A stretch of DNA of 64,000 bases from NCBI RefSeq assembly GCF_002854065.1, contig NZ_CP024147.1. One strand, 5' to 3'. Of the stretch, positions 28,315-64,000 are shown piece after piece. Source of the DNA: Escherichia coli (GTDB lineage Bacteria > Pseudomonadota > Gammaproteobacteria > Enterobacterales > Enterobacteriaceae). Position 1 is the stretch's first letter. The number at the start of each line of letters is the position of its first letter. Made by a program: the position numbers and the translations under genes. The notes beneath the pieces were generated by a model. It was not told the origin of the DNA and made no database searches. It was given only the letters and a program-made list of their open reading frames with translations.

Positions 28315-28435
28315 GCGGTGACGGTACGGGTGAGGGAAAATGGGAGATGGGGCACGGATATCCCGAGAATGCACTGAAAAGAGGCGATTAACGGCCAGCT
28401 AATCGCCAGAACTCCTTACCATGAAGAGCAAAAAT

Positions 28436-28466
28436 GGCAGCAAATTCTGCGTCCAGTTTTGCTGCC
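28436..28466 (-). terminator. hairpin plus T-run downstream of ORF 28537..29283 / liv operon
   Basis: Arms ggcagcaaa (28436-28444) and tttgctgcc (28458-28466); minus strand continues atttttgctctt. Confidence 0.45.
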
Positions 28467-28536
28467 CGATGAGAGCTACATTTTTCAATTTTAACAAAAG
28501 ATTGCCGCGACACTGGTCTAACGGCAAAGAAGATTT

Positions 28537-29283: not shown

Positions 29284-29401
29284 GGGAGGGAACCTTTCCG
29301 TGGCAAATAAGTGGTCTGGTTTTAATCCTCCCGGTCAGTTGAAACAAGTCTGTATACGGACGAATAACCCGGCAGAACTTAGCTGCCGGGTTATTGATAA
29401 T

Positions 29402-46647: not shown

Positions 46648-47205
46648 ATGCGCAATCTGGTTAAATATGTCGGAATTGGCCTGCTGGTTATGGGGCTTGC
46701 GGCCTGTGATGATAAAGACACTAACGCTACGGCGCAGGGTTCGGTCGCGGAAAGTAACGCTACCGGGAATCCCGTCAACCTGCTTGATGGCAAGTTAAGT
46801 TTCTCGCTGCCAGCGGATATGACCGACCAGAGCGGTAAGCTGGGAACGCAGGCCAATAACATGCATGTCTGGTCCGACGCCACCGGTCAGAAAGCAGTCA
46901 TCGTCATCATGGGCGATGATCCGAAAGAAGATCTGGCGGTGCTGGCGAAGCGTCTGGAAGATCAGCAACGTAGCCGCGATCCGCAGCTGCAAGTGGTAAC
47001 CAATAAAGCCATTGAGCTGAAAGGTCACAAAATGCAGCAGTTAGACAGTATTATCTCCGCGAAAGGCCAGACGGCGTACTCTTCCGTTATTCTGGGTAAC
47101 GTGGGTAATCAACTGCTAACCATGCAAATTACGCTGCCAGCTGACGATCAGCAAAAAGCGCAGACAACCGCAGAAAACATCATTAATACGCTGGTTATTC
47201 AGTAA
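46648..47205 (+). CDS. dcrB: periplasmic lipoprotein DcrB
   Basis: ORF 46594..47205; ATG at 46648 gives [20 protein letters not shown] (lipobox). Confidence 0.9.
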
Positions 47206-47208
47206 GTT

Positions 47209-48426: not shown

Positions 48427-48557
48427 GAGGATCACCACATTTTTACAACAGTGTTTCATTTTTACCACGTGCTGACGTGAAAATCAGCAGTAAGAATCAG
48501 AATATTGCTGGCGTGACTCCCGCTACACTTAATACAAAAAGTCACAAGGAAGCCCCA

Positions 48558-49607
48558 ATGGAAACCCCTCAACCCGATAAAACGGGCATGCACATTCTGC
48601 TCAAGCTGGCCTCGCTGGTAGTGATCCTGGCGGGCATTCACGCAGCGGCAGATATCATTGTGCAGCTGTTACTGGCGCTGTTTTTTGCCATCGTCCTCAA
48701 CCCGCTCGTCACCTGGTTTATTCGTCGGGGAGTACAACGCCCCGTTGCCATTACGATTGTAGTGGTGGTGATGCTGATCGCACTAACCGCGCTGGTCGGC
48801 GTACTGGCGGCATCGTTTAACGAATTTATCTCTATGCTGCCGAAGTTTAATAAGGAGCTGACGCGCAAACTTTTTAAATTGCAGGAGATGTTGCCTTTTC
48901 TTAATTTGCATATGTCGCCGGAGCGAATGCTGCAGCGGATGGACTCGGAAAAAGTGGTTACCTTCACCACGGCGCTAATGACCGGGCTTTCCGGGGCAAT
49001 GGCGAGCGTGCTTTTGCTGGTGATGACCGTAGTTTTTATGCTGTTTGAAGTGCGCCACGTCCCTTACAAAATGCGTTTTGCGCTGAATAACCCACAGATT
49101 CACATCGCAGGATTACACCGCGCACTTAAAGGCGTTTCGCATTATCTGGCGTTAAAGACGCTACTCAGTTTATGGACAGGTGTCATCGTCTGGCTGGGGC
49201 TGGAGCTGATGGGGGTGCAGTTTGCGCTGATGTGGGCAGTACTGGCGTTTTTGCTTAACTACGTGCCCAATATCGGCGCGGTAATTTCCGCCGTACCGCC
49301 AATGATTCAGGTGCTGCTGTTTAATGGTATTTACGAATGTATTCTGGTCGGCGCATTGTTTTTAGTTGTCCATATGGTCATCGGCAATATTTTAGAGCCA
49401 CGGATGATGGGCCATCGCCTGGGGATGTCCACCATGGTGGTATTTCTTTCATTGTTAATTTGGGGATGGCTGCTCGGCCCGGTAGGGATGCTACTTTCGG
49501 TGCCATTAACCAGCGTGTGTAAAATCTGGATGGAAACGACGAAAGGCGGTAGCAAACTGGCGATTTTACTGGGGCCGGGCAGACCGAAAAGTCGGTTACC
49601 GGGTTAA
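48558..49607 (+). CDS. yhhT: AI-2E/PerM-family transporter
   Basis: ORF 48477..49607; ATG at 48558 (RBS aagga) gives METPQPDKTGMHILLKLASLVV. Confidence 0.9.
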   Translation: METPQPDKTGMHILLKLASLVVILAGIHAAADIIVQLLLALFFAIVLNPLVTWFIRRGVQRPVAITIVVVVMLIALTALVGVLAASFNEFISMLPKFNKELTRKLFKLQEMLPFLNLHMSPERMLQRMDSEKVVTFTTALMTGLSGAMASVLLLVMTVVFMLFEVRHVPYKMRFALNNPQIHIAGLHRALKGVSHYLALKTLLSLWTGVIVWLGLELMGVQFALMWAVLAFLLNYVPNIGAVISAVPPMIQVLLFNGIYECILVGALFLVVHMVIGNILEPRMMGHRLGMSTMVVFLSLLIWGWLLGPVGMLLSVPLTSVCKIWMETTKGGSKLAILLGPGRPKSRLPG

Positions 49608-49626
49608 TAGCACCTCCTGAGCAGGC

Positions 49627-49657
49627 AATGGCCACCGTTTATCTAACAGTGGCCATT
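49627..49657 (+). terminator. yhhT terminator hairpin
   Basis: Arms aatggccac (49627-49635) and gtggccatt (49649-49657), followed by tgatttg. Confidence 0.45.
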
Positions 49658-49659
49658 TG

Positions 49660-49986
49660 ATTTGAGGAAATGATGAAACATTATTCAGAAAATTAATTTA
49701 AAAAAACCATTCCTTAAGTCAAATATATATAAACGCCGAATAGCGATTAAATCCTTCTCAAAGAATGCACTGATAACATTGTGTTATTTTTATTGCCTCA
49801 TTTTTCTCACTCACTTATAGTTGGTCCCTGCTGGCAGTAATTTAGTCATTTCAGAGATTTTTACTCTGATGTGCACTTACTGACTTATCTCACAAGTAAT
49901 TTTTTCTCTAAATAAAGAATAGTGATGCCAGCAATTACAGTTAAATCTTGCTTTACTCGTAAAAACAATACTTTAATGGGGTTCTA
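49660..49986. other. AT-rich junction between core (yhhT) and accessory cluster; probable island boundary and cluster promoter
   Basis: Visibly AT-rich (long A/T runs), no ORFs in any frame, immediately precedes the first cluster gene. Confidence 0.6.
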
Positions 49987-50376
49987 ATGAGACATTACAT
50001 GAAGTGGTTTGCGGCTATTGCTGTTGTGGGTGCTTTAGCAGGTTGCGCGCGTACTGCGCCAATTGATCAGGTTCACTCAACCGTCAGCGCTGGTCATACC
50101 CAGGAACAAGTGAAAAAAGCGATTCTGAAAGCTGGCGTTGAACGCAAATGGATTATGTCCGAAGCCGGACAAGGCATAATTAAAGCACGTCAACAGTCAC
50201 GCGATCATTCAGCGGAAATACGCATTAACTACACGGCATCCAGCTACGATATCAATTATGAAAATAGCCAGAACCTACAAGCGTCAGGCGGACAAATTCA
50301 TAAAAACTACAATCGCTGGGTCCGCAATCTCGACAAAGATATTCAACTGAATTTGTCAGCGGGCGCAGATTTATAA
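49987..50376 (+). CDS. small lipoprotein, first gene of the APE-type cluster
   Basis: 129-aa ORF MRHYMKWFAAIAVVGALAGC (signal peptide plus lipobox); alternative start 49999; lower GC than downstream genes. Confidence 0.7.
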   Translation: MRHYMKWFAAIAVVGALAGCARTAPIDQVHSTVSAGHTQEQVKKAILKAGVERKWIMSEAGQGIIKARQQSRDHSAEIRINYTASSYDINYENSQNLQASGGQIHKNYNRWVRNLDKDIQLNLSAGADL

Positions 50377-50435
50377 TTCTTCCTAAAGTCGGGCCGTTGC
50401 GGTCCGATAATAATTTAATTCCCTCTTAACAGGTT

Positions 50436-51503
50436 GTGCCCAACATGTACGAACAGGATTCTCTTAGCGCACTGGATGCGATTACCGAAGCTCAACGCAT
50501 TGCCTTTGCCCCTATGCTTTTTCAAACAGCACTCTGCCTACGTAATGCGGGTGTACTTTCATATCTGGATCGGCAAGGCAAACATGGCGCAACGCTGGCT
50601 GATATCACCGAACATAGCCATATCAACGAATATGCTGCCAGCGTTCTGTTAGATATGGGCTTAAGCGGGCGAATTATTACCTGTAAAGAGGGAATTTATT
50701 ACCTGGCGAAAATCGGTCATTACCTCCTGCATGACACTATGACTCGCGTGAATATGGATTTCACCCAGGATGTCTGTTACCAGGGGCTCTTCTTCCTCGC
50801 CGATTCACTCAATGAAGGAAAACCTTCCGGGTTAAAAGTATTTGGCGACTGGTCGACGATATATCCGGCACTTTCGCAATTACCAGACGCCGCTCGTGAA
50901 AGCTGGTTTGCGTTTGATCATTACTATTCAGATGGCGCATTTAACGCCGTACTGCCTTATGTATTCGCCAACAACCCCACAACATTGTACGATGTAGGCG
51001 GCAATACGGGTAAGTGGGCTTTGCGTTGCTGCAAATACAATGAAAACATCGCCGTGACGTTATTAGATCTGCCACAACAAATCGTACTAGCGAAAGAAAA
51101 TATCGCGAATGCAGGTTTTTCTGATCGCATAGATTTCCATGCGGTGGATATGCTAAGCGATGCCCCATTACCGGGCGAGGCTGATATCTGGTGGATGAGC
51201 CAATTTTTAGACTGTTTTTCACCCGAACAAATAATTAGCATACTCAGCAAAATTGCCAGCGTAATGAAGCCTGGCGCAAAAGTTTGCATCATGGAGTTGT
51301 TCTGGGATGCGCAGCGGTTTGAAGCAGCATCGTTTAGCCTGAACGCGTCCTCACTTTATTTTACCTGCATGGCAAACGGTAACAGCCGTTTCTATAGTGC
51401 AGAGAAATTTTACGACTATCTGAATAAAGCAGGATTCCAGGTAGCAGAGCGCCACGATAATTTAGGCGTTGGGCATACACTTTTGATATGCCAAAAGAAA
51501 TAA
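50436..51503 (+). CDS. apeB: SAM-dependent (O-)methyltransferase
   Basis: 355-aa ORF; Rossmann SAM motif LYDVGGNTGKWAL. Symbol inferred from conserved ape cluster order; verify. Confidence 0.7.
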   Translation: MPNMYEQDSLSALDAITEAQRIAFAPMLFQTALCLRNAGVLSYLDRQGKHGATLADITEHSHINEYAASVLLDMGLSGRIITCKEGIYYLAKIGHYLLHDTMTRVNMDFTQDVCYQGLFFLADSLNEGKPSGLKVFGDWSTIYPALSQLPDAARESWFAFDHYYSDGAFNAVLPYVFANNPTTLYDVGGNTGKWALRCCKYNENIAVTLLDLPQQIVLAKENIANAGFSDRIDFHAVDMLSDAPLPGEADIWWMSQFLDCFSPEQIISILSKIASVMKPGAKVCIMELFWDAQRFEAASFSLNASSLYFTCMANGNSRFYSAEKFYDYLNKAGFQVAERHDNLGVGHTLLICQKK

Positions 51504-51543
51504 TCGTCACTTAATAATTTTGGTTTACCGCGGGCGCGCGTTG

Positions 51544-52266
51544 ATGAAATTTACATTAAATATTACCGACTGGCAGGCACTGGCGCCTGGACTTAGCGAA
51601 GCGCAGCAATGGCAAGCATGGTCGCGCCAGCCGTGGGCGATTGACCCTGCCGCGCCGTTGGCAAAATTAAGTGAACTGCCAATGATGACCGCCCGCCGCC
51701 TCAGTTCAGGCAGCAAACTGGCTGTTGAATGCGGTCTGGCAATGCTACGCCGCCATCAGCCAGACGCCGTTTTGTATACCAGTCGTCATGGCGAACTGGA
51801 GCGCAATTACCGCATTGTTCATGCACTGGCAACCGAACAGGCGCTTTCTCCGACGGACTTCGCGCTCTCCGTACACAACTCTTCCGTGGGTAACCTGACC
51901 ATTGCGGCCAAACAGCCGATCGTTTCGTCATCGCTTTCGGCTGGTCGCGACACTTTCCAGCAAGGTTTGTGTGAAGTGCTTAGTCTGTTACAGGCGGGCT
52001 ACCAGCGCGTGTTGATGGTCGATTTTGATGGCTTTCTGCCTGAGTTCTATCATCCACAACTGCCCGCAGAAATGCCGACCTGGCCGTACGCCGTCGCGCT
52101 GGTGATTGAAGCTGGCGATGAGTGGCAATGTGGAACGCAGTCAGCCATTGCGGGTAATGAAACAACACTGCCGCAAAGCATGTTGTTTTTACAGCACTAT
52201 TTACAAAATGCGGACACATTTTCACTGCCTGGCGAGCGCGTACAGTGGCGCTGGAGCCGTGGATGA
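51544..52266 (+). CDS. apeC: short KS-like partner protein (chain-length-factor-like)
   Basis: ORF 51520..52266 (TTG); ATG at 51544 gives MKFTLNITDWQALAPG; about 240 aa, far shorter than a full KAS; ATGA overlap with the next gene. Confidence 0.6.
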   Translation: MKFTLNITDWQALAPGLSEAQQWQAWSRQPWAIDPAAPLAKLSELPMMTARRLSSGSKLAVECGLAMLRRHQPDAVLYTSRHGELERNYRIVHALATEQALSPTDFALSVHNSSVGNLTIAAKQPIVSSSLSAGRDTFQQGLCEVLSLLQAGYQRVLMVDFDGFLPEFYHPQLPAEMPTWPYAVALVIEAGDEWQCGTQSAIAGNETTLPQSMLFLQHYLQNADTFSLPGERVQWRWSRG

Positions 52267-53084
52267 GTAAGCTGCTGTCACGTCTGGAGTGGACCTGGCG
52301 ACTGGTCATGACCGGGTTATGTTTTGCCCTGTTTGGTCTCGGCGGCCTGCTGCTTTCTGTCGTGTGGTTTAACATATTGTTAGTTTTGGTGTGGGATACT
52401 TCCCGCCGCCGTCGTTTGGCGCGTCGCAGCATTGCCGCCAGTTTTCGCCTGTTTTTAACTGTCGCGAAAGGGCTTGGCGTGCTGGATTATCGTATTGATG
52501 GCGCTGAAATTTTACGTCAGGAACGCGGTTGCCTCGTCGTAGCCAATCATCCCACGCTGATCGATTACGTGCTGCTGGCGTCAGTCATGCCAGAAACTGA
52601 CTGCCTGGTGAAAAGCGCGCTGTTAAAAAATCCTTTTCTTGGCGGCGTCGTGCGGGCGGCAGATTATTTAATCAACAGCGAAGCTGAAACCCTGTTACCC
52701 CGCTGCCAACAGCGACTGGCACAGGGTGACACTATCCTGATTTTCCCCGAAGGCACGCGAACGAAGCCCGGTGAAAAAATGACGCTGCAGCGCGGGGCGG
52801 CGAATATTGCCGTGCGCTGTGCCAGCGATTTACGCATCGTGACGATCGGCTGTAGCGAGCATCTGCTGGATAAACAAAGTAAATGGTATGACGTTCCACC
52901 TGACCGGCCGTTTTTTACGGTTGCAGTCCATGGTCGGGTTGAAATCAATAAATTTTACGATGCAACTTCACAAGAACCGGCGCTGGCAGCAAGGCAGTTA
53001 AACCGGCATCTTTTGCTTCAATTACAACAAGGTTGTTTACCTCTCTCAGGAATAAATAATGCAAGCGCTTTATCTGGAAATTAA
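52263..53084 (+). CDS. lysophospholipid/glycerol-3-phosphate acyltransferase family protein
   Basis: ORF 52245..53084; HX4D motif NHPTLIDY and FPEGTRT motif; start chosen at the ATGA overlap (52263). Confidence 0.75.
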   Translation: MSKLLSRLEWTWRLVMTGLCFALFGLGGLLLSVVWFNILLVLVWDTSRRRRLARRSIAASFRLFLTVAKGLGVLDYRIDGAEILRQERGCLVVANHPTLIDYVLLASVMPETDCLVKSALLKNPFLGGVVRAADYLINSEAETLLPRCQQRLAQGDTILIFPEGTRTKPGEKMTLQRGAANIAVRCASDLRIVTIGCSEHLLDKQSKWYDVPPDRPFFTVAVHGRVEINKFYDATSQEPALAARQLNRHLLLQLQQGCLPLSGINNASALSGN

Positions 53085-53316
53085 AAACCTCATCATCAGC
53101 ACCCTCAATCTGGACGAGTTGACGCCTGATGATATCGATACCGACGCGCCGCTGTTTGGCGACGGTTTAGGGCTGGACTCTATCGATGCCCTGGAACTGG
53201 GACTGGCAGTAAAAAATGAGTACGGCATCGTGCTCTCTGCGGAAAGCGAAGAGATGCGTCAGCACTTTTTCTCCGTCGCCACTCTGGCCTCTTTCATTGC
53301 TGCGCAACGTGCCTGA
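53059..53316 (+). CDS. apeE: acyl carrier protein
   Basis: 85-aa acidic ORF with phosphopantetheine-site motif LGLDSIDALEL. Confidence 0.8.
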   Translation: MQALYLEIKNLIISTLNLDELTPDDIDTDAPLFGDGLGLDSIDALELGLAVKNEYGIVLSAESEEMRQHFFSVATLASFIAAQRA

Positions 53317-53327
53317 GGAAAGCCATC

Positions 53328-53579
53328 ATGACAGAACAACAAACCGTCTATCAGGAAGTCTCAGCCCTGCTGGTTAAGCTGTTTGAAATCGATCCGCAGG
53401 ACATCAAACCTGAAGCGCGCCTGTACGAAGATCTGGAACTGGACAGCATCGACGCCGTTGACATGATTGTGCACCTGCAAAAGAAAACCGGTAAGAAAAT
53501 CAAGCCGGAAGAGTTTAAAGCAGTGCGTACAGTCCAGGATGTCGTCGAGGCTGTAGAACGCCTGCTACAAGAAGCCTGA
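53328..53579 (+). CDS. apeF: acyl carrier protein
   Basis: 83-aa ORF with LELDSIDAVDM motif. Confidence 0.8.
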   Translation: MTEQQTVYQEVSALLVKLFEIDPQDIKPEARLYEDLELDSIDAVDMIVHLQKKTGKKIKPEEFKAVRTVQDVVEAVERLLQEA

Positions 53580-53583
53580 TCTG

Positions 53584-54165
53584 ATGTCGGGCATTCGCTC
53601 GCTACCGATGATTAAGCTGCTGACTGGATTATTGCTGCTCGCCTGGCCGTTTGTGATTTGGTTTGGCTTAGCGCATAACGGCCTGCACTGGCTGTTGCCG
53701 CTAATAGCGTTGCTGCTTTTGTTGCGCCTGCGCCAGACCCGTCGCCAGGCGGGGCCGCTCCAGGTCGTCACACAAATCGTCGCTGTCGTGGGCATCGCAT
53801 TATGTGTCGCCAGCGTTCTGTTGAAAACACACCAGCTACTGCTGTTTTACCCGGTAGTGGTTAACGCGGTCATGCTGGCGGTTTTTGGCGGTTCGCTGTG
53901 GTCGGCAATGCCGATAGTTGAGCGGCTGGCGCGTTTGCAGGAGCCAGATCTGCCGGAAAAGGGCATGCGCTATACCCGCCGCGTCACGCAAATCTGGTGC
54001 GGCTTTTTCATCATCAACGGTGGAATTGCCCTCTTTACCGCGCTTTATGCCGATATGTCGTTATGGACCGCCTGGAACGGCATGATTGCTTATTTGTTGA
54101 TGGGAACATTAATGGCTGGTGAATGGCTGGTGCGCCGTCAGGTGATGAAAAGAGATCGCGCATGA
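53584..54165 (+). CDS. integral membrane protein of unknown function
   Basis: 193-aa ORF with several hydrophobic segments (LLLAWPFVIWFGL, VVGIALCVASVLL, ...). Confidence 0.65.
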   Translation: MSGIRSLPMIKLLTGLLLLAWPFVIWFGLAHNGLHWLLPLIALLLLLRLRQTRRQAGPLQVVTQIVAVVGIALCVASVLLKTHQLLLFYPVVVNAVMLAVFGGSLWSAMPIVERLARLQEPDLPEKGMRYTRRVTQIWCGFFIINGGIALFTALYADMSLWTAWNGMIAYLLMGTLMAGEWLVRRQVMKRDRA

Positions 54166-55523
54166 AGCAGACCTTACCGCTTGCACGCTGGCTGACTGCG
54201 CCACGCTCTGATGACACACCCATTGCGTGGCTGGACGAAAGCTTCTGGACGCTGGGCGATTTGCGTCACGATGTCGCGCAACTTATCTGCCGCTTGCAGC
54301 AACAGCCGGGTGAACGCTGGGCGCTGTGCTTTGAGAACAGCTATCTGTTTATCGTTGCCCTGCTCGCCACGCTACACGCCGGAAAAACGCCGGTGCTTCC
54401 GGGGCATAACCGTGTTATCCAGCTTAACGAGCAACGTGAACTTTTTGATGGTGTGCTTAGCGACAGCGAACTTAACTGGCAAGGTTCATTGCTGTTGGTA
54501 GCAAGTTCCCCACAAATCGCGACACAATCCTTCACCTTTGCCGCTATAGCGCCAGAGGCTTTTATCGAGCTGTTTACCTCCGGTTCCACGGGACAGCCGA
54601 AACGGGTGATTAAACCTGTTCATTTGCTGGATCGTGAAGCAGAACTGCTGGCTGAACGATTAGGCGCACGTCTGGCGGGTTGTCGTGTCGTCGGTTCCGT
54701 ATTGCCGCAGCATTTGTACGGCCTGACTTTTCGCGTTTTCCTGCCCATGGCGTTGGGATTACCGCTGCACGCCGCCATGCTCTGGTATGTCGAACAGTTT
54801 GCCGCGTTGAGTCATCAGCATCGCTATATCTTCATCAGCAGCCCGGCATTTTTGAAGCGCCTGGATACCCAGCTTTCTCCGCCACCCGTTCAGGTGCTTC
54901 TCTCTGCTGGCGGTGAGCTGCCGTGGCAGGATGTACAACACACCGCAAGCTGGCTGCGCGTCTGGCCTGATGAAATCTACGGCAGCACGGAAACCGGTGT
55001 CATCGCCTGGCGTTACCGCGAACAAGAGCAACGCCGCTGGCTACCCTTCCCTGGTATGCAGTTCCAGGCCGAAGGTGATTCTTTTCGTCTCTTTTCACCG
55101 CTGATGGCGGAAGATAACGGCCTGTTACTCGACGATCTCTTGCAGTTTAGCCAGGACGGTCAGTTCCATCTGATGGGGCGTCGTGGGCGCATCGTTAAGA
55201 TTGAAGAAAAACGTATTTCACTCCAGGAAGTAGAACAACGTCTGCTGGCGCTGGACGGTATTCGCGAGGCGGCGGCAGTTCCCGTTACGCGCGGCGGGCG
55301 TCAGAGCATAGGCGTTTTGCTGGTGCTGGATGACGAAGCTCATCTGCAATGGCAGAACGGCGGCGGGCATAGCCAGGAAATGACCTGGCGGCGTTTACTG
55401 CGCCCGACGCTGGAGCCAGTTGCTATTCCGCGTTACTGGCGCGTTATTGATGAAATGCCAGTAAACAGTATGAACAAGCGTGTCTATGCGCAATTACAGG
55501 AGTTATTTCATGAAGCCCCATGA
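54162..55523 (+). CDS. apeH: AMP-dependent synthetase/ligase (acyl/aryl-activating enzyme)
   Basis: ORF 54123..55523; start at the ATGA overlap 54162 (MKQTLPLARW); AMP-binding motif TSGSTGQPKRV. Confidence 0.78.
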   Translation: MKQTLPLARWLTAPRSDDTPIAWLDESFWTLGDLRHDVAQLICRLQQQPGERWALCFENSYLFIVALLATLHAGKTPVLPGHNRVIQLNEQRELFDGVLSDSELNWQGSLLLVASSPQIATQSFTFAAIAPEAFIELFTSGSTGQPKRVIKPVHLLDREAELLAERLGARLAGCRVVGSVLPQHLYGLTFRVFLPMALGLPLHAAMLWYVEQFAALSHQHRYIFISSPAFLKRLDTQLSPPPVQVLLSAGGELPWQDVQHTASWLRVWPDEIYGSTETGVIAWRYREQEQRRWLPFPGMQFQAEGDSFRLFSPLMAEDNGLLLDDLLQFSQDGQFHLMGRRGRIVKIEEKRISLQEVEQRLLALDGIREAAAVPVTRGGRQSIGVLLVLDDEAHLQWQNGGGHSQEMTWRRLLRPTLEPVAIPRYWRVIDEMPVNSMNKRVYAQLQELFHEAP

Positions 55524-55863
55524 AATCGAGCGCCATCAGGCACAAACGAATCACCTTGAAATTGTTCTGCATCTCAGGGCGGATCTGTTCTGGTTTCGCG
55601 GTCATTTTGCCGTGCAACCATTACTCCCAGGAGTTGCGCAAATCGACTGGGCGATGAGCTACGCGCTCAATCTGCTCGCGCCTGGCTGGCGTTTTCACTC
55701 CATTCAGAACATAAAATTCCAGTCTCCGTTGCTGCCGGAAAACCGCGTCACGCTCGCGCTTAACTGGCAGGAAGAACGCCAGATTCTGAGCTTTAGCTAT
55801 CAGCGTCACGACGGTGACGCCCGCCACACCGCCAGTAGCGGGAAGATCCGCCTATGTCGGTAA
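55510..55863 (+). CDS. apeI: hotdog-fold (3R)-hydroxyacyl-ACP dehydratase-like protein
   Basis: ORF 55480..55863; FabA/FabZ-like motif GHFAVQPLLPGV; start 55510 overlaps the upstream gene. Confidence 0.7.
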   Translation: MKPHEIERHQAQTNHLEIVLHLRADLFWFRGHFAVQPLLPGVAQIDWAMSYALNLLAPGWRFHSIQNIKFQSPLLPENRVTLALNWQEERQILSFSYQRHDGDARHTASSGKIRLCR

Positions 55864-57530
55864 ACTTTTCTCCCTGCGTGTTGATTCCCTGCTATAACCA
55901 CGGCGCGATGATGCCGGGCGTGCTGGCGCGTCTTAAGCCATTTAATCTCCCCTGTATTGTGGTGGACGACGGCAGCGATGCCGCCACGCAACAGCAACTG
56001 GATAATCTGGTTAGCGAACAGCCTGGCGTGACCTTAATTCGCTTAGCAGAAAACGCAGGTAAAGGCGCGGCAGTGATGCGTGGCTTACAGGCAGCGGCAG
56101 ACGCAGGGTTCAGCCATGCGGTGCAGGTGGATGCTGACGGTCAACATGCGATTGAAGATATCCCCAAACTGCTGGCACTCGCTGAACGACACCCTGCGGC
56201 GCTGATCTCCGGCCAGCCAATTTACGATGACTCCATCCCCCGCTCACGGCTTTACGGGCGCTGGGTCACCCACGTCTGGGTATGGATCGAAACGCTCTCC
56301 CTGCAACTGAAAGACAGCATGTGCGGCTTTCGCGTTTATCCGGTTGCGCCAACGCTGCAACTGGCAAAACACGCCACCATCGGCAAGCGGATGGATTTCG
56401 ACACTGAAGTGATGGTGCGCCTCTACTGGCAGGGAAACACCAGCTATTTCGTGCCGACCCGCGTCACCTATCCACTGGACGGGCTTTCGCATTTTGATGC
56501 CCTGAAAGATAACGTCCGCATCTCGCTCATGCACACGCGTCTGTTTTTCGGCATGTTACCGCGTATTCCTTCACTGCTGATGCGCCGCTCTTCCAGCCAC
56601 TGGGCGCGGCAGAGTGAAGTGAAAGGATTATGGGGAATGCGCCTGATGCTGCTGGTCTGGCGTCTGCTGGGAAGAACGGCGTTTAGCGCGCTGCTTTACC
56701 CGGTGGTGGGCGTCTACTGGCTCACTGCTTCTCGTGCGCGCAAAGCGTCGCAAGACTGGCTCGCCCGTGTACGACAGCATCAACCACAGGCGGCAAAACT
56801 CAACAGCTATCAGCACTTTCTACGTTTCGGTAATGCCATGCTCGACAAAATCGCCAGTTGGCGCGGCGAGCTGCAACTGGGGCGCGATGTGCTGTTTGCG
56901 CCAGGCGCAGAAGCGGCACTTAACGTCAGCGATCCGCGCGGCAAATTGCTGCTGGCCTCGCATCTTGGCGATGTGGAAGTGTGCCGGGCGCTGGCAAAAA
57001 TTCAGGGCTACAAAACCATTAACGCGCTGGTGTTTAGCGAAAACGCCCAACGCTTTAAACAGATAATGCAGGAGATGGCCCCGCAGGCCGGCATCAACCT
57101 GATGCCGGTAACGGATATCGGCCCGGAAACCGCCATCCTGCTCAAAGAGAAGCTGGATAACGGCGAATGGGTGGCGATTGTCGGTGACCGCATCGCCGTC
57201 AACCCGCAACGCGGCGGCGACTGGCGCGTCTGCTGGAGTCCGTTTATGGGCCAGCCTGCGCCCTTCCCACAGGGGCCGTTTATTCTCGCGTCTATTTTGC
57301 GCTGCCCGGTGAATCTGATTTTCGCCCTGCGCCAGCACGGCAAGCTGCATATTCACTGCGAAACCTTTGCCGACCCGCTGCTGTTGCCGCGTGGCGAACG
57401 CCAACAGGCGCTGCAAAACGCTATCGACCACTACGCCGCGCGTCTGGAACATTACGCGCTCCAGTCGCCCCTCGACTGGTTTAATTTTTTCGATTTCTGG
57501 CAACTGCCGGAAATTCAGGACAAGGAGTAA
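55854..57530 (+). CDS. bifunctional GT2 glycosyltransferase / lipid-A-type acyltransferase-like protein
   Basis: 558 aa; N-terminus CVLIPCYNHG...VVDDGSDA...DADGQH (GT-A DxD); C-terminal half resembles HtrB/LpxL-type acyltransferases. Confidence 0.7.
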   Translation: MSVNFSPCVLIPCYNHGAMMPGVLARLKPFNLPCIVVDDGSDAATQQQLDNLVSEQPGVTLIRLAENAGKGAAVMRGLQAAADAGFSHAVQVDADGQHAIEDIPKLLALAERHPAALISGQPIYDDSIPRSRLYGRWVTHVWVWIETLSLQLKDSMCGFRVYPVAPTLQLAKHATIGKRMDFDTEVMVRLYWQGNTSYFVPTRVTYPLDGLSHFDALKDNVRISLMHTRLFFGMLPRIPSLLMRRSSSHWARQSEVKGLWGMRLMLLVWRLLGRTAFSALLYPVVGVYWLTASRARKASQDWLARVRQHQPQAAKLNSYQHFLRFGNAMLDKIASWRGELQLGRDVLFAPGAEAALNVSDPRGKLLLASHLGDVEVCRALAKIQGYKTINALVFSENAQRFKQIMQEMAPQAGINLMPVTDIGPETAILLKEKLDNGEWVAIVGDRIAVNPQRGGDWRVCWSPFMGQPAPFPQGPFILASILRCPVNLIFALRQHGKLHIHCETFADPLLLPRGERQQALQNAIDHYAARLEHYALQSPLDWFNFFDFWQLPEIQDKE

Positions 57531-57533
57531 AGG

Positions 57534-57956
57534 GTGCTTAACGATCCCCGATTTACCGCTGAAGTCGAGCTGACCATTCCCTTTCACGACGTCGATATGA
57601 TGGGCGTGGCCTGGCACGGTAACTATTTTCGCTACTTTGAAGTGGCCCGCGAGGCGCTGCTCAACCAGTTCAATTACGGCTATCGGCAGATGAAAGAGTC
57701 CGGTTATTTGTGGCCAGTGGTCGATGCGCGGGTGAAATATCGCCACGCCCTCACCTTTGAGCAACGCATCCGCGTGCGTGCGCATATCGAAGAGTTCGAA
57801 AACCGTCTGCGGATTGGCTATCAGATTTTCGATGCCGAAACGGGCAAACGCGCCACCACCGGATACACCATTCAGGTCGCGGTCGACGAGCAAAGTCGCG
57901 AACTGTGCTTTGTCAGCCCCGATATTCTGTTTGAACGCATGGGAGTCAAACCATGA
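57534..57956 (+). CDS. apeK: 4HBT/YbgC-type acyl thioesterase
   Basis: 140-aa ORF (GTG start); hotdog thioesterase pattern HDVDMMGVAWHGNYFRYFEVAR. Confidence 0.75.
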   Translation: MLNDPRFTAEVELTIPFHDVDMMGVAWHGNYFRYFEVAREALLNQFNYGYRQMKESGYLWPVVDARVKYRHALTFEQRIRVRAHIEEFENRLRIGYQIFDAETGKRATTGYTIQVAVDEQSRELCFVSPDILFERMGVKP

Positions 57957-58558
57957 AATTTTTACCGCTACTGGCGCTGCTGATTAGCCCGTTTGTGAGC
58001 GCCCTGACCCTGGACGATCTTCAGCAACGCTTTACCGAACAATCGGTGATCCGCGCCCATTTCGATCAAACCCGGACGATTAAAGATCTGCCGCAGCCGC
58101 TGCGATCTCAGGGCCAGATGTTGATCGCCCGCGACCAGGGGCTGTTGTGGGATCAAACCTCACCGTTCCCCATGCAACTATTACTGGACGATAAACGCAT
58201 GGTGCAGGTGATCAACGGTCAGCCGCCGCAAATCATCACGGCAGAAAACAACCCGCAGATGTTTCAGTTTAACCACCTGCTGCGCGCGCTGTTCCAGGCC
58301 GATCGCAAAGTGCTGGAACAAAACTTCCGCGTCGAATTTACCGACAAAGGCGAAGGCCGCTGGACGCTGCGCCTGACCCCAACCACCACGCCGCTGGATA
58401 AAATTTTCAACACCATCGATCTCGCCGGGCAAACCTATCTGGAGAGCATTCAACTTAATGATAAACAGGGCGATCGCACCGATATTGCTCTTACCCAACA
58501 TCAACTGACGCCAGCGCAACTGACCGATGACGAACGCCAACGTTTTGCCGCCCAGTAA
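57953..58558 (+). CDS. LolA-like outer-membrane lipoprotein carrier
   Basis: 201 aa, signal peptide MKFLPLLALLISPFVSA; LolA-family length and layout. Confidence 0.65.
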   Translation: MKFLPLLALLISPFVSALTLDDLQQRFTEQSVIRAHFDQTRTIKDLPQPLRSQGQMLIARDQGLLWDQTSPFPMQLLLDDKRMVQVINGQPPQIITAENNPQMFQFNHLLRALFQADRKVLEQNFRVEFTDKGEGRWTLRLTPTTTPLDKIFNTIDLAGQTYLESIQLNDKQGDRTDIALTQHQLTPAQLTDDERQRFAAQ

Positions 58559-60845
58559 ACGCCCCGCGCTGTTATGGGGGCTAGTCTGCCTGGTCATGGC
58601 GGCGGCGTTGCTGATCCTGCTGCCGCAATCACGGCTGAACAGTAGCGTGCTGGCTATGTTACCCAAACAGGCGATGGGCGATATTCCCCCAGCGCTGAAT
58701 GACGGCTTTATGCAGCGTCTGGACCGCCAACTGGTGTGGCTGGTCAGCCCCGGTAAAGAGGCTAATCCCAGGGTGGCTCAGGAGTGGCTGACGCTGCTGC
58801 AAAAATCCGCTGCGCTCGGCGACGTTAAAGGGCCAATGGATGCCGCCAGCCAGCAAGCGTGGGGCGCGTTTTTCTGGCAGCACCGCAACGGCCTGATTGA
58901 CCCCGACACCCGCGCCCGCCTGCAAAACGGCGGCGAAGCGCAGGCGCAGTGGATCCTCTCCCAGCTTTATTCTGCATTCTCCGGGGTAAGCGGCAAGGAG
59001 CTGCAAAACGATCCGCTGATGTTAATGCGCGGCTCGCAGCTGGCGATGGCAAAAAATGGCCAGCGTTTGCGGCTGATGGACGGCTGGCTGGTGACGCAGG
59101 ATCCCCAGGGCAACTACTGGTATCTGCTGCACGGCGAACTGGCGGGATCGTCGTTTGATATGCAGCAAACCCACCAGCTCATCACGACCCTGAATACGCT
59201 GGAAAAGGATCTGAAAACGCGTTACCCACAGGCGCAGTTGCTCTCGCGCGGCACGGTATTTTACAGCGATTACGCCAGTCAACAGGCGAAGCAGGATATC
59301 TCAACCCTGGGCGTGGCAACGCTGCTGGGGGTGATATTACTGATTGTGGCGGTGTTCCGCTCTTTGCGCCCATTGTTGCTTTGCGTGATTTCCATCGGCA
59401 TCGGCGCGCTGGCGGGAACGGTCGCCACTTTATTGATTTTCGGTGAATTACACCTGATGACGCTGGTGATGAGCATGAGCGTTATCGGCATTTCCGCTGA
59501 CTACACGCTCTATTATCTCACCGAGCGGATGGTGCACGGCAACGACGTTTCGCCGTGGCAAAGCCTGGCGAAAGTACGCAATGCCCTGCTGCTGGCGCTG
59601 CTCACCACCGTGGCGGCATATCTGATTATGATGCTCGCCCCCTTCCCCGGCATTCGCCAGATGGCGATTTTTGCCGCCGTCGGGTTGAGCGCCTCCTGTC
59701 TGACCGTCCTGTTCTGGCATCCGTGGCTGTGCCGTGGCCTGCCGGTGCGTCCGGTTCCGGCGATGGCGCTGATGCTGCGCTGGCTGGCAGCGTGGCGGCG
59801 CAATAAAAAACTGTCGCTGGGTCTGCCCGTCGCGCTGGCGCTGTTTTCGCTGGCGGGGATGTCAATGCTGCGCGTCGATGACGATATCTCGCAGTTACAG
59901 GCGCTGCCGCAGCATATTCTGGCGCAGGAGAAAGCCATTACCGCCCTGACCGGACAAAGCGTCGATCAAAAATGGTTTGTGGTTTACGGCGATTCGCCAC
60001 AGCAAACATTGCGGCGACTGGAGAAATATACCGCCTCACTTGAGTATGCGAAAAAAGAGGGGCTTATCAGCAACTACCGCACCATTCCGCTGAACTCCCT
60101 TGCGCGGCAGGAGGAAGATTTACAACTGCTGAAAACGGCGGCCCCGACAGTAACAAAAGCGCTGCAAAATGCCGGGCTGACGGCAGTGAACCCGGATCTC
60201 AACGCCATGCCAGTGAACGTTGATGAATGGCTGGCAAGCCCTGCCAGTGAAGGCTGGCGTCTGCTGTGGCTGACGCTGGAAAACGGCGAAAGCGGCGTAC
60301 TGGTGCCGGTTGAAGGGGTTAAAAGTAGCGCGTTGATGCAGGAAATCGCCACATATTACCCTTGCGGCATTGCCTGGGTTGATCGCAAAAGCACCTTTGA
60401 TGAGTTGTTCGCGCTTTACCGTTATGTCTTAACCGGCTTGTTGCTGGTGGCGCTGGCGGTGATTGCCTGCGGCGCAGTGGCCCGTCTCGGCTGGCGCAAA
60501 GGGCTTATCAGCCTTGTACCTTCGGTGCTTTCGCTGGGTTGTGGTCTGGCGGTGCTGGCGATGAGCGGGCAGGCGGTGAATCTCTTTTCGCTGCTGGCGC
60601 TGGTGCTGGTGCTTGGCATCGGCATCAACTACACGCTGTTTTTCAGTAATCCGCGCGGCACACCATTAACTTCGCTACTGGCGATCACGCTGGCAATGCT
60701 CACCACCTTGCTGACGCTGGGAATGCTGATATTCAGCGCCACCCAGGCCATCAGCAGTTTTGGCATTGTGCTGGTGAGCGGTATTTTCACCGCCTTCCTG
60801 CTTTCGCCGCTGGCGATGCCCGATAAAAAGAGAACAAAAAAATGA
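58527..60845 (+). CDS. MMPL/RND-superfamily exporter
   Basis: 772-aa ORF with two blocks of TM helices separated by large soluble domains. Confidence 0.75.
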   Translation: MTNANVLPPSKRPALLWGLVCLVMAAALLILLPQSRLNSSVLAMLPKQAMGDIPPALNDGFMQRLDRQLVWLVSPGKEANPRVAQEWLTLLQKSAALGDVKGPMDAASQQAWGAFFWQHRNGLIDPDTRARLQNGGEAQAQWILSQLYSAFSGVSGKELQNDPLMLMRGSQLAMAKNGQRLRLMDGWLVTQDPQGNYWYLLHGELAGSSFDMQQTHQLITTLNTLEKDLKTRYPQAQLLSRGTVFYSDYASQQAKQDISTLGVATLLGVILLIVAVFRSLRPLLLCVISIGIGALAGTVATLLIFGELHLMTLVMSMSVIGISADYTLYYLTERMVHGNDVSPWQSLAKVRNALLLALLTTVAAYLIMMLAPFPGIRQMAIFAAVGLSASCLTVLFWHPWLCRGLPVRPVPAMALMLRWLAAWRRNKKLSLGLPVALALFSLAGMSMLRVDDDISQLQALPQHILAQEKAITALTGQSVDQKWFVVYGDSPQQTLRRLEKYTASLEYAKKEGLISNYRTIPLNSLARQEEDLQLLKTAAPTVTKALQNAGLTAVNPDLNAMPVNVDEWLASPASEGWRLLWLTLENGESGVLVPVEGVKSSALMQEIATYYPCGIAWVDRKSTFDELFALYRYVLTGLLLVALAVIACGAVARLGWRKGLISLVPSVLSLGCGLAVLAMSGQAVNLFSLLALVLVLGIGINYTLFFSNPRGTPLTSLLAITLAMLTTLLTLGMLIFSATQAISSFGIVLVSGIFTAFLLSPLAMPDKKRTKK

Positions 60846-61426
60846 TCAAATCCACATTCTGGCGAGCGTTCGCCCTGACCGCTACGCTTATCCTCACCGG
60901 CTGTAGCCACTCGCAACCAGAACAGGAAGGCCGCCCGCAGGCGTGGCTGCAACCTGGCACGCGCATCACGCTGCCGGCACCAGGGATTTCACCCGCAGTC
61001 AATTCGCAGCAACTGTTGACCGGCAGCTTCAACGGCAAAACCCAGTCGCTGTTAGTGATGCTTAACGCCGACGATCAGAAAATCACCCTTGCCGGGCTGT
61101 CGTCGGTCGGCATTCGCCTGTTTCTGGTGACCTACGATGCGCAAGGGCTACGCGCCGAGCAATCCATCGTCGTCCCACAGTTACCGCCCGCAAGTCAGGT
61201 ACTGGCTGACGTGATGCTCAGCCACTGGCCGATTAGCGCCTGGCAACCGCAACTTCCCGCAGGATGGACACTTCGCGACAACGGTGACAAACGCGAGCTG
61301 CGTAACGCCAGCGGCAAACTGGTCACGGAAATCACCTATCTGAATCGCAAGGGCAAACGCGTGCCAATCAGCATTGAGCAGCATGTCTTTAAATACCACA
61401 TCACCATTCAATACTTAGGTGACTGA
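60842..61426 (+). CDS. lipoprotein (DUF3261-like)
   Basis: 194 aa, MIKSTFWRAFALTATLILTGC lipobox. Confidence 0.65.
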   Translation: MIKSTFWRAFALTATLILTGCSHSQPEQEGRPQAWLQPGTRITLPAPGISPAVNSQQLLTGSFNGKTQSLLVMLNADDQKITLAGLSSVGIRLFLVTYDAQGLRAEQSIVVPQLPPASQVLADVMLSHWPISAWQPQLPAGWTLRDNGDKRELRNASGKLVTEITYLNRKGKRVPISIEQHVFKYHITIQYLGD

Positions 61427-62597
61427 TATGATTTATATTTCCGCCGTCGGCATGATCAACGCCCTGGGAAATAACCTTGACGAAATCGCAACCAACCTGA
61501 CTCGCGGTGTTGCTCCCGGCATGCGCCCGCGCGCAGGCTGGTTGCAGGGGCATCCGCAGGCGGTCCTGGCTGGCGTGGATGGCGAGCTTCCGCTTATCCC
61601 GGAAAAATTCGCTGCGCACCGCTCGCGCAACAATCAGATCCTGCTGGCGGCGCTGGCGCAGATCCAGCCGCAGGTTGATGACGCTATCGCGAAATATGGT
61701 CGCGAGCGCATCGCGATTGTACTTGGCACCAGCACCTCCGGCCTGCATGAAGGCGACACGCACGTTAACCTGCGCACCCACGGGCAGCCGAGCACCACAT
61801 GGCACTACGCGCAACAGGAACTCGGCGATCCGTCGCGTTTTCTCAGCCACTGGCTGGCGCTCGACGGCCCGGCCTATACCCTTTCAACCGCCTGCTCTTC
61901 CAGCGCCAGAGCGATAATCAGCGGGCGCAGGCTTATCGAAGCGGGGCTGGTCGATGCCGCCATTGTGGGTGGCGCAGACACCCTGAGCCGGATGCCGATT
62001 AACGGTTTTCACAGCCTCGAATCGCTGTCGCCAACCTTATGTCAGCCGTTTGGTCGTGACCGCGCAGGTATCACCATTGGTGAAGGGGCGGGGCTAATGC
62101 TGCTGACCCGGGAACCGCAGCCCATCGCGTTGCTGGGCGTTGGTGAATCGAGCGACGCTTACCATATTTCGGCCCCGCATCCGCAGGGCGAAGGGGCGAT
62201 CCGCGCCATTAATCAGGCACTGACCGATGCGCAGCTTACGCCAGATGACGTCGGCTATATCAACCTGCACGGCACCGCCACGCAACTCAACGACCAGATT
62301 GAATCGATGGTGCTTAACGCCCTGTTTGGCGAACGCGTACCGTGCAGCTCCACCAAACATTTGACCGGCCACACGCTGGGCGCGGCGGGCATTACCGAAG
62401 CAGCAATCAGTATGTTGATCTTACAGCGTGATTTACCGCTGCCCGCCCAAGATTTCAGCCTGTCGCCACGCGATCCCACGCTGCCACCCTGCGGCATTAT
62501 CGAAAAACCGCAGCCGCTGGCTCGTCCGGTGATCCTGTCCAATTCCTTCGCCTTTGGCGGCAATAACGCCAGCATTCTGCTCGGGAGGGTTTCGTGA
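61419..62597 (+). CDS. apeO: beta-ketoacyl-ACP synthase (KAS I/II-like)
   Basis: 392 aa; active-site Cys TACSSS, His motifs HGTATQLND and GHTLGAAG. Confidence 0.85.
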   Translation: MTDMIYISAVGMINALGNNLDEIATNLTRGVAPGMRPRAGWLQGHPQAVLAGVDGELPLIPEKFAAHRSRNNQILLAALAQIQPQVDDAIAKYGRERIAIVLGTSTSGLHEGDTHVNLRTHGQPSTTWHYAQQELGDPSRFLSHWLALDGPAYTLSTACSSSARAIISGRRLIEAGLVDAAIVGGADTLSRMPINGFHSLESLSPTLCQPFGRDRAGITIGEGAGLMLLTREPQPIALLGVGESSDAYHISAPHPQGEGAIRAINQALTDAQLTPDDVGYINLHGTATQLNDQIESMVLNALFGERVPCSSTKHLTGHTLGAAGITEAAISMLILQRDLPLPAQDFSLSPRDPTLPPCGIIEKPQPLARPVILSNSFAFGGNNASILLGRVS

Positions 62598-63058
62598 GCC
62601 ACTATTTATCCCCCGGCGCTTATCTGCCCCACGACGCGCCCATGTTACTGCTGGAAGACGTGGTGAGCGTCAGCGATGACAGCGCGGTGTGCCGCGTGAC
62701 GGTTTCGCCCAGTGGCGTACTGGCACCGTTTCTCGACCCGGACGGCAATCTCCCCGGCTGGTTTGCCCTTGAACTGATGGCGCAAACCGTCGGCGTCTGG
62801 TCTGGCTGGCATCGCCACCAGCAGGGCAAAAACAGTATTGAGTTAGGGATGATACTGGGCGCGCGTGAATTGCTTTGCGCCGCTGGCATTCTGCCCGCAG
62901 GCCAGACGCTGACCATTACCGTCAAACTGCTGATGCAGGACGATCGCTTCGGCAGTTTTGAGTGCAGCATCAACGACGGCGAGGCGACGGGCCGCATTAA
63001 CACCTTCCAGCCGACCGCGGAAGAACTTACCACCCTGTTTCAACAAGGAGCGTCCTGA
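62594..63058 (+). CDS. apeP: hotdog-fold dehydratase
   Basis: 154-aa ORF; 4-nt overlap with KS, 1-nt overlap with KR. Confidence 0.7.
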   Translation: MSHYLSPGAYLPHDAPMLLLEDVVSVSDDSAVCRVTVSPSGVLAPFLDPDGNLPGWFALELMAQTVGVWSGWHRHQQGKNSIELGMILGARELLCAAGILPAGQTLTITVKLLMQDDRFGSFECSINDGEATGRINTFQPTAEELTTLFQQGAS

Positions 63059-63789
63059 TGAGTCGTTCAGTTCTGGTTACTGGTGCCAGCAAAGGCATTG
63101 GTCGCGCCATCGCCTGCCAACTGGCGGCAGACGGCTTTAACATTGGCGTTCACTATCACCGTGACGCCACAGGCGCTCAGGAAACGCTGAATGCCATTGT
63201 CGCCAACGGGGGTAACGGGCGTTTGCTCAGTTTCGACGTCGCAAACCGCGAACAGTGTCGGGAAGTGCTGGAGCATGAGATCGCGCAACACGGTGCCTGG
63301 TACGGCGTGGTCAGTAACGCCGGGATCGCCCGCGATGCCGCTTTTCCGGCTTTAAGCGATGACGACTGGGATGCGGTGATCCACACCAACCTCGACAGTT
63401 TCTACAACGTCATTCAGCCGTGCATTATGCCAATGATCGGCGCGCGCCAGGGTGGGCGCATCATCACGCTGTCCTCGGTTTCCGGCGTAATGGGCAATCG
63501 CGGCCAGGTGAATTACAGCGCAGCCAAAGCCGGAATTATCGGCGCAACTAAAGCGCTGGCTATCGAACTCGCGAAGCGCAAAATCACCGTCAACTGCATC
63601 GCGCCGGGGCTTATTGATACCGGGATGATCGAAATGGAAGAGAGCGCTCTGAAAGAGGCAATGTCGATGATCCCCATGAAACGTATGGGCCAGGCGGAAG
63701 AAGTTGCCGGGCTTGCCAGTTATTTAATGTCTGATATTGCGGGTTACGTCACCCGCCAGGTTATTTCCATCAACGGAGGGATGTTATGA
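63058..63789 (+). CDS. apeQ: 3-oxoacyl-ACP reductase (SDR, FabG-like)
   Basis: 243 aa; TGASKGIGRAIA NAD(P)-binding and YSAAKAG catalytic motifs. Confidence 0.88.
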   Translation: MSRSVLVTGASKGIGRAIACQLAADGFNIGVHYHRDATGAQETLNAIVANGGNGRLLSFDVANREQCREVLEHEIAQHGAWYGVVSNAGIARDAAFPALSDDDWDAVIHTNLDSFYNVIQPCIMPMIGARQGGRIITLSSVSGVMGNRGQVNYSAAKAGIIGATKALAIELAKRKITVNCIAPGLIDTGMIEMEESALKEAMSMIPMKRMGQAEEVAGLASYLMSDIAGYVTRQVISINGGML

Positions 63790-64000
63790 CACGTCGCGTA
63801 GTGATTACAGGAATGGGCGGCGTGACTGCCTTTGGTGAAAACTGGCAGGACGTTTCTGCACGCTTACTGGCGTATGAAAATGCGGTGCGCAAAATGCCGG
63901 AGTGGCAGGTCTACGATGGCCTGCACACCCTGCTTGGCGCGCCTGTTGATGATTTCACGCTACCGGAGCACTATACCCGCAAGCGTATCCGTGCGATGGG
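63786..64000 (+). CDS. apeR: beta-ketoacyl-ACP synthase (partial, N-terminal 71 codons; continues beyond window)
   Basis: ATG at 63786 (ATGA overlap with KR); MTRRVVITGMGGVTAFGENWQD (KAS N-terminus). Confidence 0.75.
   Translation, partial: MTRRVVITGMGGVTAFGENWQDVSARLLAYENAVRKMPEWQVYDGLHTLLGAPVDDFTLPEHYTRKRIRAM

Follow-up and report, generated by a model that had tools for sequence, protein, structure and literature searches.

Gene content and layout of the ape locus

We analysed a window of 64,000 nucleotides (nt) from Escherichia coli (RefSeq assembly GCF_002854065.1, contig NZ_CP024147.1), whose last part, positions 49608–64000, is occupied by a chain of 18 plus-strand genes, apeA to apeR. 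The locus is very probably the E. coli chromosomal aryl-polyene (APE) biosynthetic gene cluster (BGC), still at the ancestral site flanked by yhhT and acpT. The chain lies downstream of yhhT and runs unbroken to the window end, according to the listing of open reading frames (ORFs) and the Prokaryotic Genome Annotation Pipeline (PGAP) annotation of NZ_CP182139.1, a complete genome with four single-nucleotide polymorphisms relative to the window over 47000–64000, which served as our annotated reference. Seventeen of the 18 ape genes are complete in the window. The last, apeR, is cut after 71 codons; its remainder and acpT lie outside the window, and their sequences were taken from this near-identical record. 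A first-pass annotation, made from the letters of the window, had described an 18-gene, single-strand cluster ending in a truncated second ketosynthase, and the ORF listing, PGAP and the Pfam and NCBIfam matches bear out both this layout and the product types that it listed.

In the reference, PGAP names the products in the order lipoprotein, methyltransferase, ketosynthase chain-length factor, lysophospholipid acyltransferase, two carrier proteins, membrane protein, AMP-binding enzyme, FabZ-family dehydratase, GT2 fusion, thioesterase, LolA-family protein, MMPL transporter, DUF3261 protein, ketosynthase, dehydratase, FabG2 and second ketosynthase. Eleven of the 17 junctions between these genes overlap, by 4, 26, 4, 14, 10, 4, 32, 4, 4, 1 and 4 nt, and the other six are gaps of 1–68 nt. 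The coordinates reproduce the 1–32-nt overlaps noted in the first pass and its ATGA motifs at 52263, 54162 and 63786; the same motif is also found at 57953 and 60842. No ape gene contains an internal stop codon, and none of the four window-specific polymorphisms breaks an ORF. The cluster has a GC content of 55.6%, approximately 3 points higher than the remainder of the window.

For the gene-by-gene comparison, NCBIfam holds no model for ApeA, C, G, I, N and P, in place of which Pfam was run on concatenated sequences. The CFT073-type sequence was that of clone D i2 (L003); strains of this type include clone D i2 and Nissle. To the left of the cluster, and outside it, lies the conserved flanking gene yhhT (48558–49607, plus strand), annotated by PGAP in the near-identical record as an AI-2E family transporter gene and 90–91% identical to Citrobacter yhhT at the same position. 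It is followed by an AT-rich spacer (49608–49986; 33% GC over the 391 bp of 49608–49998), the presumed promoter or regulatory region of the plus-strand genes.

The first gene, apeA (49987–50376), encodes a lipoprotein with the lipobox LAGC that is 65% identical to CFT073-type ApeA, 84% to its Citrobacter counterpart and 100% to that of O157:H7; no Pfam or NCBIfam model matched it. PGAP starts this gene at 49999 (125 amino acids) rather than at the ATG at 49987 (129 amino acids, MRHYMKWF...). Citrobacter and the CFT073-type locus use a start that aligns with the upstream ATG and lack a conserved second ATG, which makes 49987 the likelier start. apeB (50445–51503) encodes an S-adenosylmethionine-dependent, O-methyltransferase-type enzyme that is predicted to methylate the aryl head group (Pfam Methyltransf_2 and a Dimerisation2-like domain; 94% identity to CFT073-type ApeB). 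apeC (51544–52266), named 'beta-ketoacyl synthase chain length factor' by PGAP, encodes the chain-length-factor partner of the ketosynthase ApeO (Pfam Ketoacyl-synt_2, 4.5e-65; best Protein Data Bank (PDB) match 6QSP chain B, 1.4e-92). The product of apeD (52263–53084) is an acyltransferase of the lysophospholipid or glycerol-3-phosphate type (Pfam Acyltransferase PF01553; TIGR00530 below cut-off; 97% to the CFT073-type protein), with a predicted role in lipid-anchor attachment.

Two acyl carrier proteins (ACPs) follow. ApeE (53059–53316), with an LDS serine motif at residue 41, scored 90.8 bits against a cut-off of 70 for NF006617 and equals the O157:H7 protein; ApeF (53328–53579), also with an LDS motif, scored 146 bits against 65 for NF003757 and is one residue off its O157:H7 counterpart. 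apeG (53584–54165) encodes an integral membrane protein (COG4648-type in the literature) with a hydrophobic sequence and no Pfam or NCBIfam match, 82% identical to CFT073-type ApeG and diverging from approximately 54000. apeH (54162–55523) encodes an adenylate-forming enzyme (Pfam AMP-binding; core motifs TSGSTGQPK and YGSTE) that is presumed to load an aryl starter, presumably 4-hydroxybenzoate, on ACP; it is 66% identical to the CFT073-type protein and 73–75% to those of Citrobacter.

The second half of the cluster opens with the dehydratase subunit gene apeI (55510–55863; Pfam ApeI-like, 1.1e-37; PDB 6QSR chain A, 7.3e-39; 72% to CFT073-type). ApeJ (55854–57530) is a GT2 glycosyltransferase fusion, 98% identical to the CFT073-type protein, with Glycos_transf_2 on its N-terminal third; no Pfam or NCBIfam model matched its C-terminal part, which Johnston et al. 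(PMC8253772) named an acyltransferase domain. apeK (57534–57956) encodes a hot-dog thioesterase (Pfam 4HBT_2 and 4HBT; 100% to CFT073-type), and apeL (57953–58558) a LolA-like periplasmic carrier (Pfam LolA and LolA_3; NCBIfam LolA and flexirubin LolA2 below their cut-offs). ApeM (58527–60845), a predicted inner-membrane exporter of the MMPL/RND type, is a 'MMPL family transporter' in PGAP (HAE3 and HpnN below cut-offs; 97% to CFT073-type). ApeN (60842–61426) is a DUF3261 lipoprotein (Pfam, 1.1e-37) with a signal sequence and the lipobox LTGC, described as LolB-like in the literature.

The elongating ketosynthase ApeO (61428–62597) has the motifs TACSS, HGTAT and GHTLGAAG of a Cys-His-His centre and scored 555.6 bits against a cut-off of 407 for NF006618, with PDB 6QSP chain A at 5.6e-175. 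It is followed by apeP (62594–63058), which encodes the dehydratase subunit that pairs with ApeI (Pfam ApeP-like, 8.1e-39; PDB 6QSR chain B, 1.9e-47), and by apeQ (63058–63789), which encodes a FabG2-type 3-ketoacyl-ACP reductase with the motifs TGASKGIG and YSAAK (TIGR01831, 476 bits against 339). The chain ends with apeR for the second, initiating ketosynthase (63786–64000 in the window, to 65015 with a length of 1,230 nt in the near-identical record), 99.8% identical to the CFT073-type protein and with 778 bits against a cut-off of 470 for NF006587.

Within the yhhT–apeA spacer we found one weak sigma-70-like match (49793–49821, 9/12). A scan of 47000–64000 against Rfam at gathering thresholds gave no match, and hence no known riboswitch or leader in the spacer. 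Consensus scanning was uninformative: promoter-like sites numbered 15 (9.3 ± 3.0 expected) and terminator-like sites 27 (17.6 ± 4.1 expected), and every one of them was weak. An alignment of the spacer with those of two Citrobacter species and of the CFT073-type locus, made in search of regulatory motifs, showed too little conservation for any to be called. No regulator gene is encoded within the cluster.

Assignment to the aryl-polyene family

Aryl-polyene clusters are said to form the most widely distributed BGC family in bacteria. Compared with the family features of Cimermancic et al. (2014), in the ape nomenclature of Grammbitter et al. (2019), the cluster has the ketosynthase–chain-length-factor pair (ApeO:ApeC), a stand-alone second ketosynthase (ApeR), the heteromeric ApeI/ApeP dehydratase pair and a ketoreductase (ApeQ), with no enoyl-reductase domain among the Pfam and NCBIfam matches of all 18 products. 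An AMP-binding enzyme with intact core motifs stands in the ApeH position, 66% identical to the E. coli reference ApeH, and adjoins two ACPs scoring above their cut-offs. The attachment and export set is present, consisting of acyltransferase, GT2 fusion, thioesterase, LolA-like protein, MMPL/RND transporter and DUF3261 lipoprotein, and the gene order A–R is that of the CFT073-type cluster. As expected of an AcpT-dependent carrier-protein system, acpT lies directly downstream, and the two carrier proteins are the same as in O157 (ApeE) or one residue off (ApeF).

Intact catalytic motifs comprise Cys-His-His in both ketosynthases (ApeO and ApeR), the serines of the ACPs, the Tyr-x3-Lys of short-chain dehydrogenases/reductases and the adenylation core. 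ApeE, ApeF, ApeO, ApeR, FabG2 and AcpT scored above their NCBIfam cut-offs. The best PDB matches for ApeO, ApeC, ApeI and ApeP are the Xenorhabdus structures 6QSP and 6QSR, followed by A. baumannii 7F28. In a pangenome study, antiSMASH 6 returned the APE cluster BGC0000836 for the orthologous O157 Sakai genes ECs_4324–4341 (PMC9205054). The aryl-polyene class proposed in the first pass is thus upheld by collinearity with CFT073, by 94–100% identity in 14 of 18 proteins, by the 6QSP/6QSR matches and by the ApeI-like, ApeP-like and DUF3261 domains.

Much of the cluster bears generic names of the type II fatty acid synthase (FAS) kind (FabG2, FabZ-family, ketoacyl synthase, ACP, acyltransferase), and FabF models also match ApeO and ApeR, below their cut-offs. 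Such names would fit an operon, ordinary or auxiliary, that serves fatty-acid or phospholipid metabolism or modifies lipid A; O157:H7 was first annotated in this sense, with the entry 'putative fatty acid biosynthesis'. We rejected ordinary fatty-acid or lipid A metabolism on the basis of APE-specific families, CFT073 orthology and the lack of an enoyl reductase, and consider this reading hardly credible. The ketosynthase–chain-length-factor pair, an adenylating enzyme of the aryl-acid type and the dehydratase families specific to ApeI and ApeP are present; equivalents of FabD and FabH are absent from the cluster, as is an enoyl reductase; and the 94–100% identical CFT073 genes make an aryl polyene, not fatty acids (PMC8253772).

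Xanthomonadin and flexirubin clusters share the logic of type II FAS and polyketide synthase (PKS) systems, an aryl starter and genes for LolA-like and MMPL export proteins; halogenase and dialkylresorcinol (DarA/DarB) genes are absent from the window cluster. Flexirubin equivalogs remained below their NCBIfam cut-offs (ApeB against FlxJ, 472.9 versus 560 bits; ApeQ against FlxB, 266 versus 340; ApeL against LolA2, 56.6 versus 125), and the cluster is therefore not a member of a flexirubin or xanthomonadin subfamily.

Orthologues in the CFT073 and Xenorhabdus systems (PMC8253772 and references therein) lead us to infer a pathway in which AcpT would first phosphopantetheinylate the carrier proteins ApeE and ApeF. 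ApeH would then adenylate an aryl acid, for which UbiC-derived 4-hydroxybenzoate is the likeliest candidate, and load it directly on ACP with no coenzyme A intermediate. The first condensation would be catalysed by ApeR and later ones, with malonyl-ACP, by the ApeO:ApeC heterodimer of ketosynthase and chain-length factor. In each cycle ApeQ would reduce the 3-keto group and ApeI:ApeP dehydrate the product; as no enoyl reductase is encoded, the double bonds would stay and the FAS-like cycle would yield a growing conjugated polyene. ApeB would methylate the aryl head, ApeK would release the acid, and ApeD and ApeJ would couple it to a membrane (glyco)lipid anchor, after which ApeG, ApeM, ApeL, ApeN and ApeA would carry the lipid to the outer membrane. 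There it would serve as a yellow pigment with antioxidant action and would also favour the formation of biofilms, in keeping with the functions reported for APE, namely oxidative-stress protection and enhanced biofilm formation (PMC8253772; PMC12871727).

Several points weigh against this picture. Our literature searches returned no published product for the yhhT–acpT type of locus, and all of the chemistry comes from the clusters of CFT073, Vibrio and Xenorhabdus. ApeA (65%), ApeH (66%), ApeI (72%) and ApeG (82%) have low identity to the E. coli reference, so that identity of the product with the CFT073 aryl polyene, APE_Ec, is presumed. Six Ape proteins have no NCBIfam model, and ApeB falls short of the FlxJ-family methyltransferase cut-off. 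The first-pass annotation spoke of one translationally coupled operon; the overlaps agree with coupling, and the ape genes plausibly form a single operon, the case for which consists of these overlaps and the lack of convincing internal terminators. Lastly, an array study found O-island 138 genes, which are the O157 form of this cluster, 2–6-fold higher in an rpoS mutant of O157 EDL933 (PMC2907692). Together with the 33% GC spacer, this result raises the possibility that the cluster may be poorly expressed under laboratory conditions.

Two forms of the APE cluster in E. coli

The intact cluster is already known: it is the same locus as O-island 138 of O157:H7 EDL933, or S-loop 225 of Sakai (Z4851–Z4868; ECs_4324–ECs_4341), with the same site (yhhT ... 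acpT–nikA), the same 18 genes and 98% nucleotide identity to the window. O157:H7 and the window strain share identical ApeA, E, I, K, N, Q and R proteins, as well as an identical AcpT. The remaining differences are allelic, with 0–16 amino acid changes per protein and ApeC changed most (93.3% identity). The window strain does not belong to O157, and the records closest to it are those of strains 100416 and CUWW06. The same gene set and nomenclature apply to APE_Xd of Xenorhabdus doucetiae (apeA–R), which has been reconstituted in vitro; this is another genus, and its pattern of head-group methylation and its lipid anchor may not be those of the window cluster.

The CFT073 cluster APE_Ec (c1204–c1186; MIBiG BGC0000836) has the same 18 genes, order and overlaps as the window, and the alignment of the CFT073-type sequence from the apeA start to the apeR end contains 11 gap columns in all. 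Heterologous expression of this cluster suffices for APE_Ec production, pigment is lost in its deletion mutants, and the cluster has been studied through a series of single-gene deletions and linked to oxidative-stress and biofilm phenotypes (PMC8253772). It occupies another chromosomal site that is not linked to acpT, within an island next to pseudogenes for hemagglutinin, ShlB and garD. In clone D i2 the flanks carry frameshifted hemagglutinin-repeat and ShlB-type secretion genes on one side (L003 1–5221) and pseudogenes of garD, a DeoR-family regulator and an aldolase on the other (L003 20989–24957), with acpT not adjoining. A CFT073-type copy was found in 255 of the 5,426 complete E. coli genomes, and at least one genome has the cluster at two places.

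Fourteen proteins (ApeB, C, D, E, F, J, K, L, M, N, O, P, Q and R) are 94–100% identical between the CFT073 type and the window, while the four proteins of lower identity (ApeA, G, H and I) mark a different allelic lineage. At the nucleotide level, identity is 87–100% over most of the cluster but falls to 58–78%, with sharp boundaries, between approximately 54000 and 55805, a stretch that covers the apeG 3′ end, all of apeH and nearly all of apeI. A second drop, to 62–70%, extends from approximately 50008 to 50605 across apeA and the apeB 5′ end, and the spacer upstream of apeA is not alignable.

The two ApeH alleles have different nearest relatives. That of the window shares 95% identity with the representative of a 1,676-member protein cluster at 90% identity, named E. 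fergusonii by a source, and is next related to Citrobacter and Klebsiella proteins at 73–75%. CFT073 ApeH falls into another protein cluster, its nearest relative from outside E. coli being that of the unclassified 'Enterobacteriaceae bacterium ESL0689' (87%). Distances to Citrobacter ApeH are nearly equal for both alleles (73–75% for the window, 70–71% for the CFT073 type). From these comparisons, it looks like one of the two E. coli APE loci had a cassette replaced by recombination with a diverged enterobacterial donor.

The same identity drops bear on the product. APE_Ec is the probable rather than the established product of the yhhT–acpT type, since ApeH, the predicted starter-loading enzyme, is divergent. 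By way of the apeA segment and the apeG(3′)–apeH–apeI cassette, an APE-type pathway could make a product that differs in starter, head-group decoration, chain length or anchor, and the sharp boundaries, the low ApeH and ApeI identities and the different affiliations of the two ApeH alleles (an Escherichia-named cluster and Citrobacter for the window, ESL0689 for CFT073) would be in line with this. However, ApeH is the least conserved protein in every comparison, including that of E. coli with Citrobacter (73–75%, against 77–94% for other proteins), and its orthologues across the Enterobacteriaceae, at approximately 65–75% identity, retain their length and gene context. The presumed setters of chain length (ApeO, ApeC and ApeR) and the methyltransferase are 94–100% identical. 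As ApeH is the fastest-evolving protein and the chain-length and methyltransferase proteins are nearly identical, we consider a different product unlikely and favour an APE_Ec-like compound.

Polarity of the yhhT–acpT region

Outside the window, the apeR stop codon is followed after 1 nt by acpT, both in O157 and in the near-identical record, and AcpT scored 396 bits against a cut-off of 174 for NF007676. According to De Lay & Cronan (2006; cited in PMC8253772), AcpT phosphopantetheinylates in vitro the two carrier proteins of the O157 island, homologues of ApeE and ApeF. acpT behaves as a translationally adjacent 19th gene of the unit, encoding the phosphopantetheinyl transferase for both carrier proteins.

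The first pass had placed acpT after yhhT in K-12, which proved correct: the two genes are separated by a spacer of 54 bp (8916–8969 in the K-12 locus L002). The final 19 nt of this spacer (CATTAAACGTTGGCCCTGA) equal the apeR 3′ end including its stop codon (compared with L001 23998–24017), and the single base and the acpT start codon that come next are those of cluster-bearing strains. We sought the source of the filler of approximately 34 nt that precedes the remnant in the K-12 scar (GGCGACAAGTGATACGATACGCACTTTCATTTTC) inside the cluster, and found chance 8–9-mers only.

Outside E. coli, the complete cluster is present in Citrobacter rodentium and C. amalonaticus, where its context is tusA-yhhQ-dcrB-(yhhS)-yhhT-apeA..R-acpT and the TGAnATG junction of apeR and acpT is conserved. 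Most of their proteins are 77–94% identical to those of the window (ApeH, 73–75%). Citrobacter synteny and the 19-nt apeR remnant together indicate that the empty site is a deletion scar, and the suggestion that the cluster had been inserted downstream of yhhT does not hold. By this comparison the cluster is ancestral at yhhT–acpT, in an arrangement that appears to be older than the genus.

K-12-type scars are present in 4,856 of the 5,426 complete E. coli genomes (approximately 89%), which points to loss of the cluster in this fraction. Approximately 569 genomes have the cluster at yhhT–acpT (5,425 with a junction match minus 4,856 with the scar), and 566 hold at least 80% of the locus including its flanks. 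acpT has been kept in 5,425 of the 5,426.

A genomic island recently acquired at yhhT–acpT would also account for the absence of the cluster at this site from K-12 and most complete genomes. It would suit the AT-rich leader and the raised GC content, and CFT073-type strains do hold a second copy that is clearly island-borne, beside hemagglutinin and garD pseudogenes. Acquisition is nevertheless very improbable, given the same tusA-yhhQ-dcrB-yhhT-ape-acpT context in both Citrobacter species and the end of apeR that K-12 keeps directly upstream of acpT. Moreover, PGAP annotates no integrase, tRNA or other mobility gene at the cluster borders, where direct repeats were not searched for. The study of De Lay and Cronan (2006) agrees with an ancestral cluster, to judge by its title as cited in PMC8253772; in the account given there, K-12 AcpT is argued to have been 'orphaned' by genome rearrangement.

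Two further loci of the window vary between strains. On the minus strand at 11513–14822, genes for a DprA-family protein and a RecQ-family helicase lie between yhgN and gntU, which we take to be adjacent in K-12. The pair is present in 1,650 of the 5,426 complete E. coli genomes; the helicase gene is frameshifted in the near-identical record, and the pair is interrupted by IS5 in strain 100416. Also on the minus strand, at 28388–29283, a small hypothetical gene and a gene for a tetratricopeptide-repeat protein lie between ugpB and livF. At least 80% of the region 28200–29400 is present in 659 of the 5,426 complete genomes, and the others match its first 161 bases only.

As it stands, the presence of the cluster in this strain adds little, as an E. 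coli cluster has already been studied by expression and gene-by-gene mutation and linked to protection from oxidative stress and to biofilm formation, and the K-12 'orphan' AcpT has its published explanation in this locus. Its use lies in annotation: the window carries the ancestral, acpT-linked form, and the K-12 yhhT–acpT junction is best read as a deletion scar. The O157-type cluster differs from that of CFT073 precisely in the starter-loading enzyme, which calls for caution when the product structure of CFT073 is transferred to it. If the proposed recombination is true, E. coli would provide a natural experiment for cassette exchange inside a type II PKS-like cluster.

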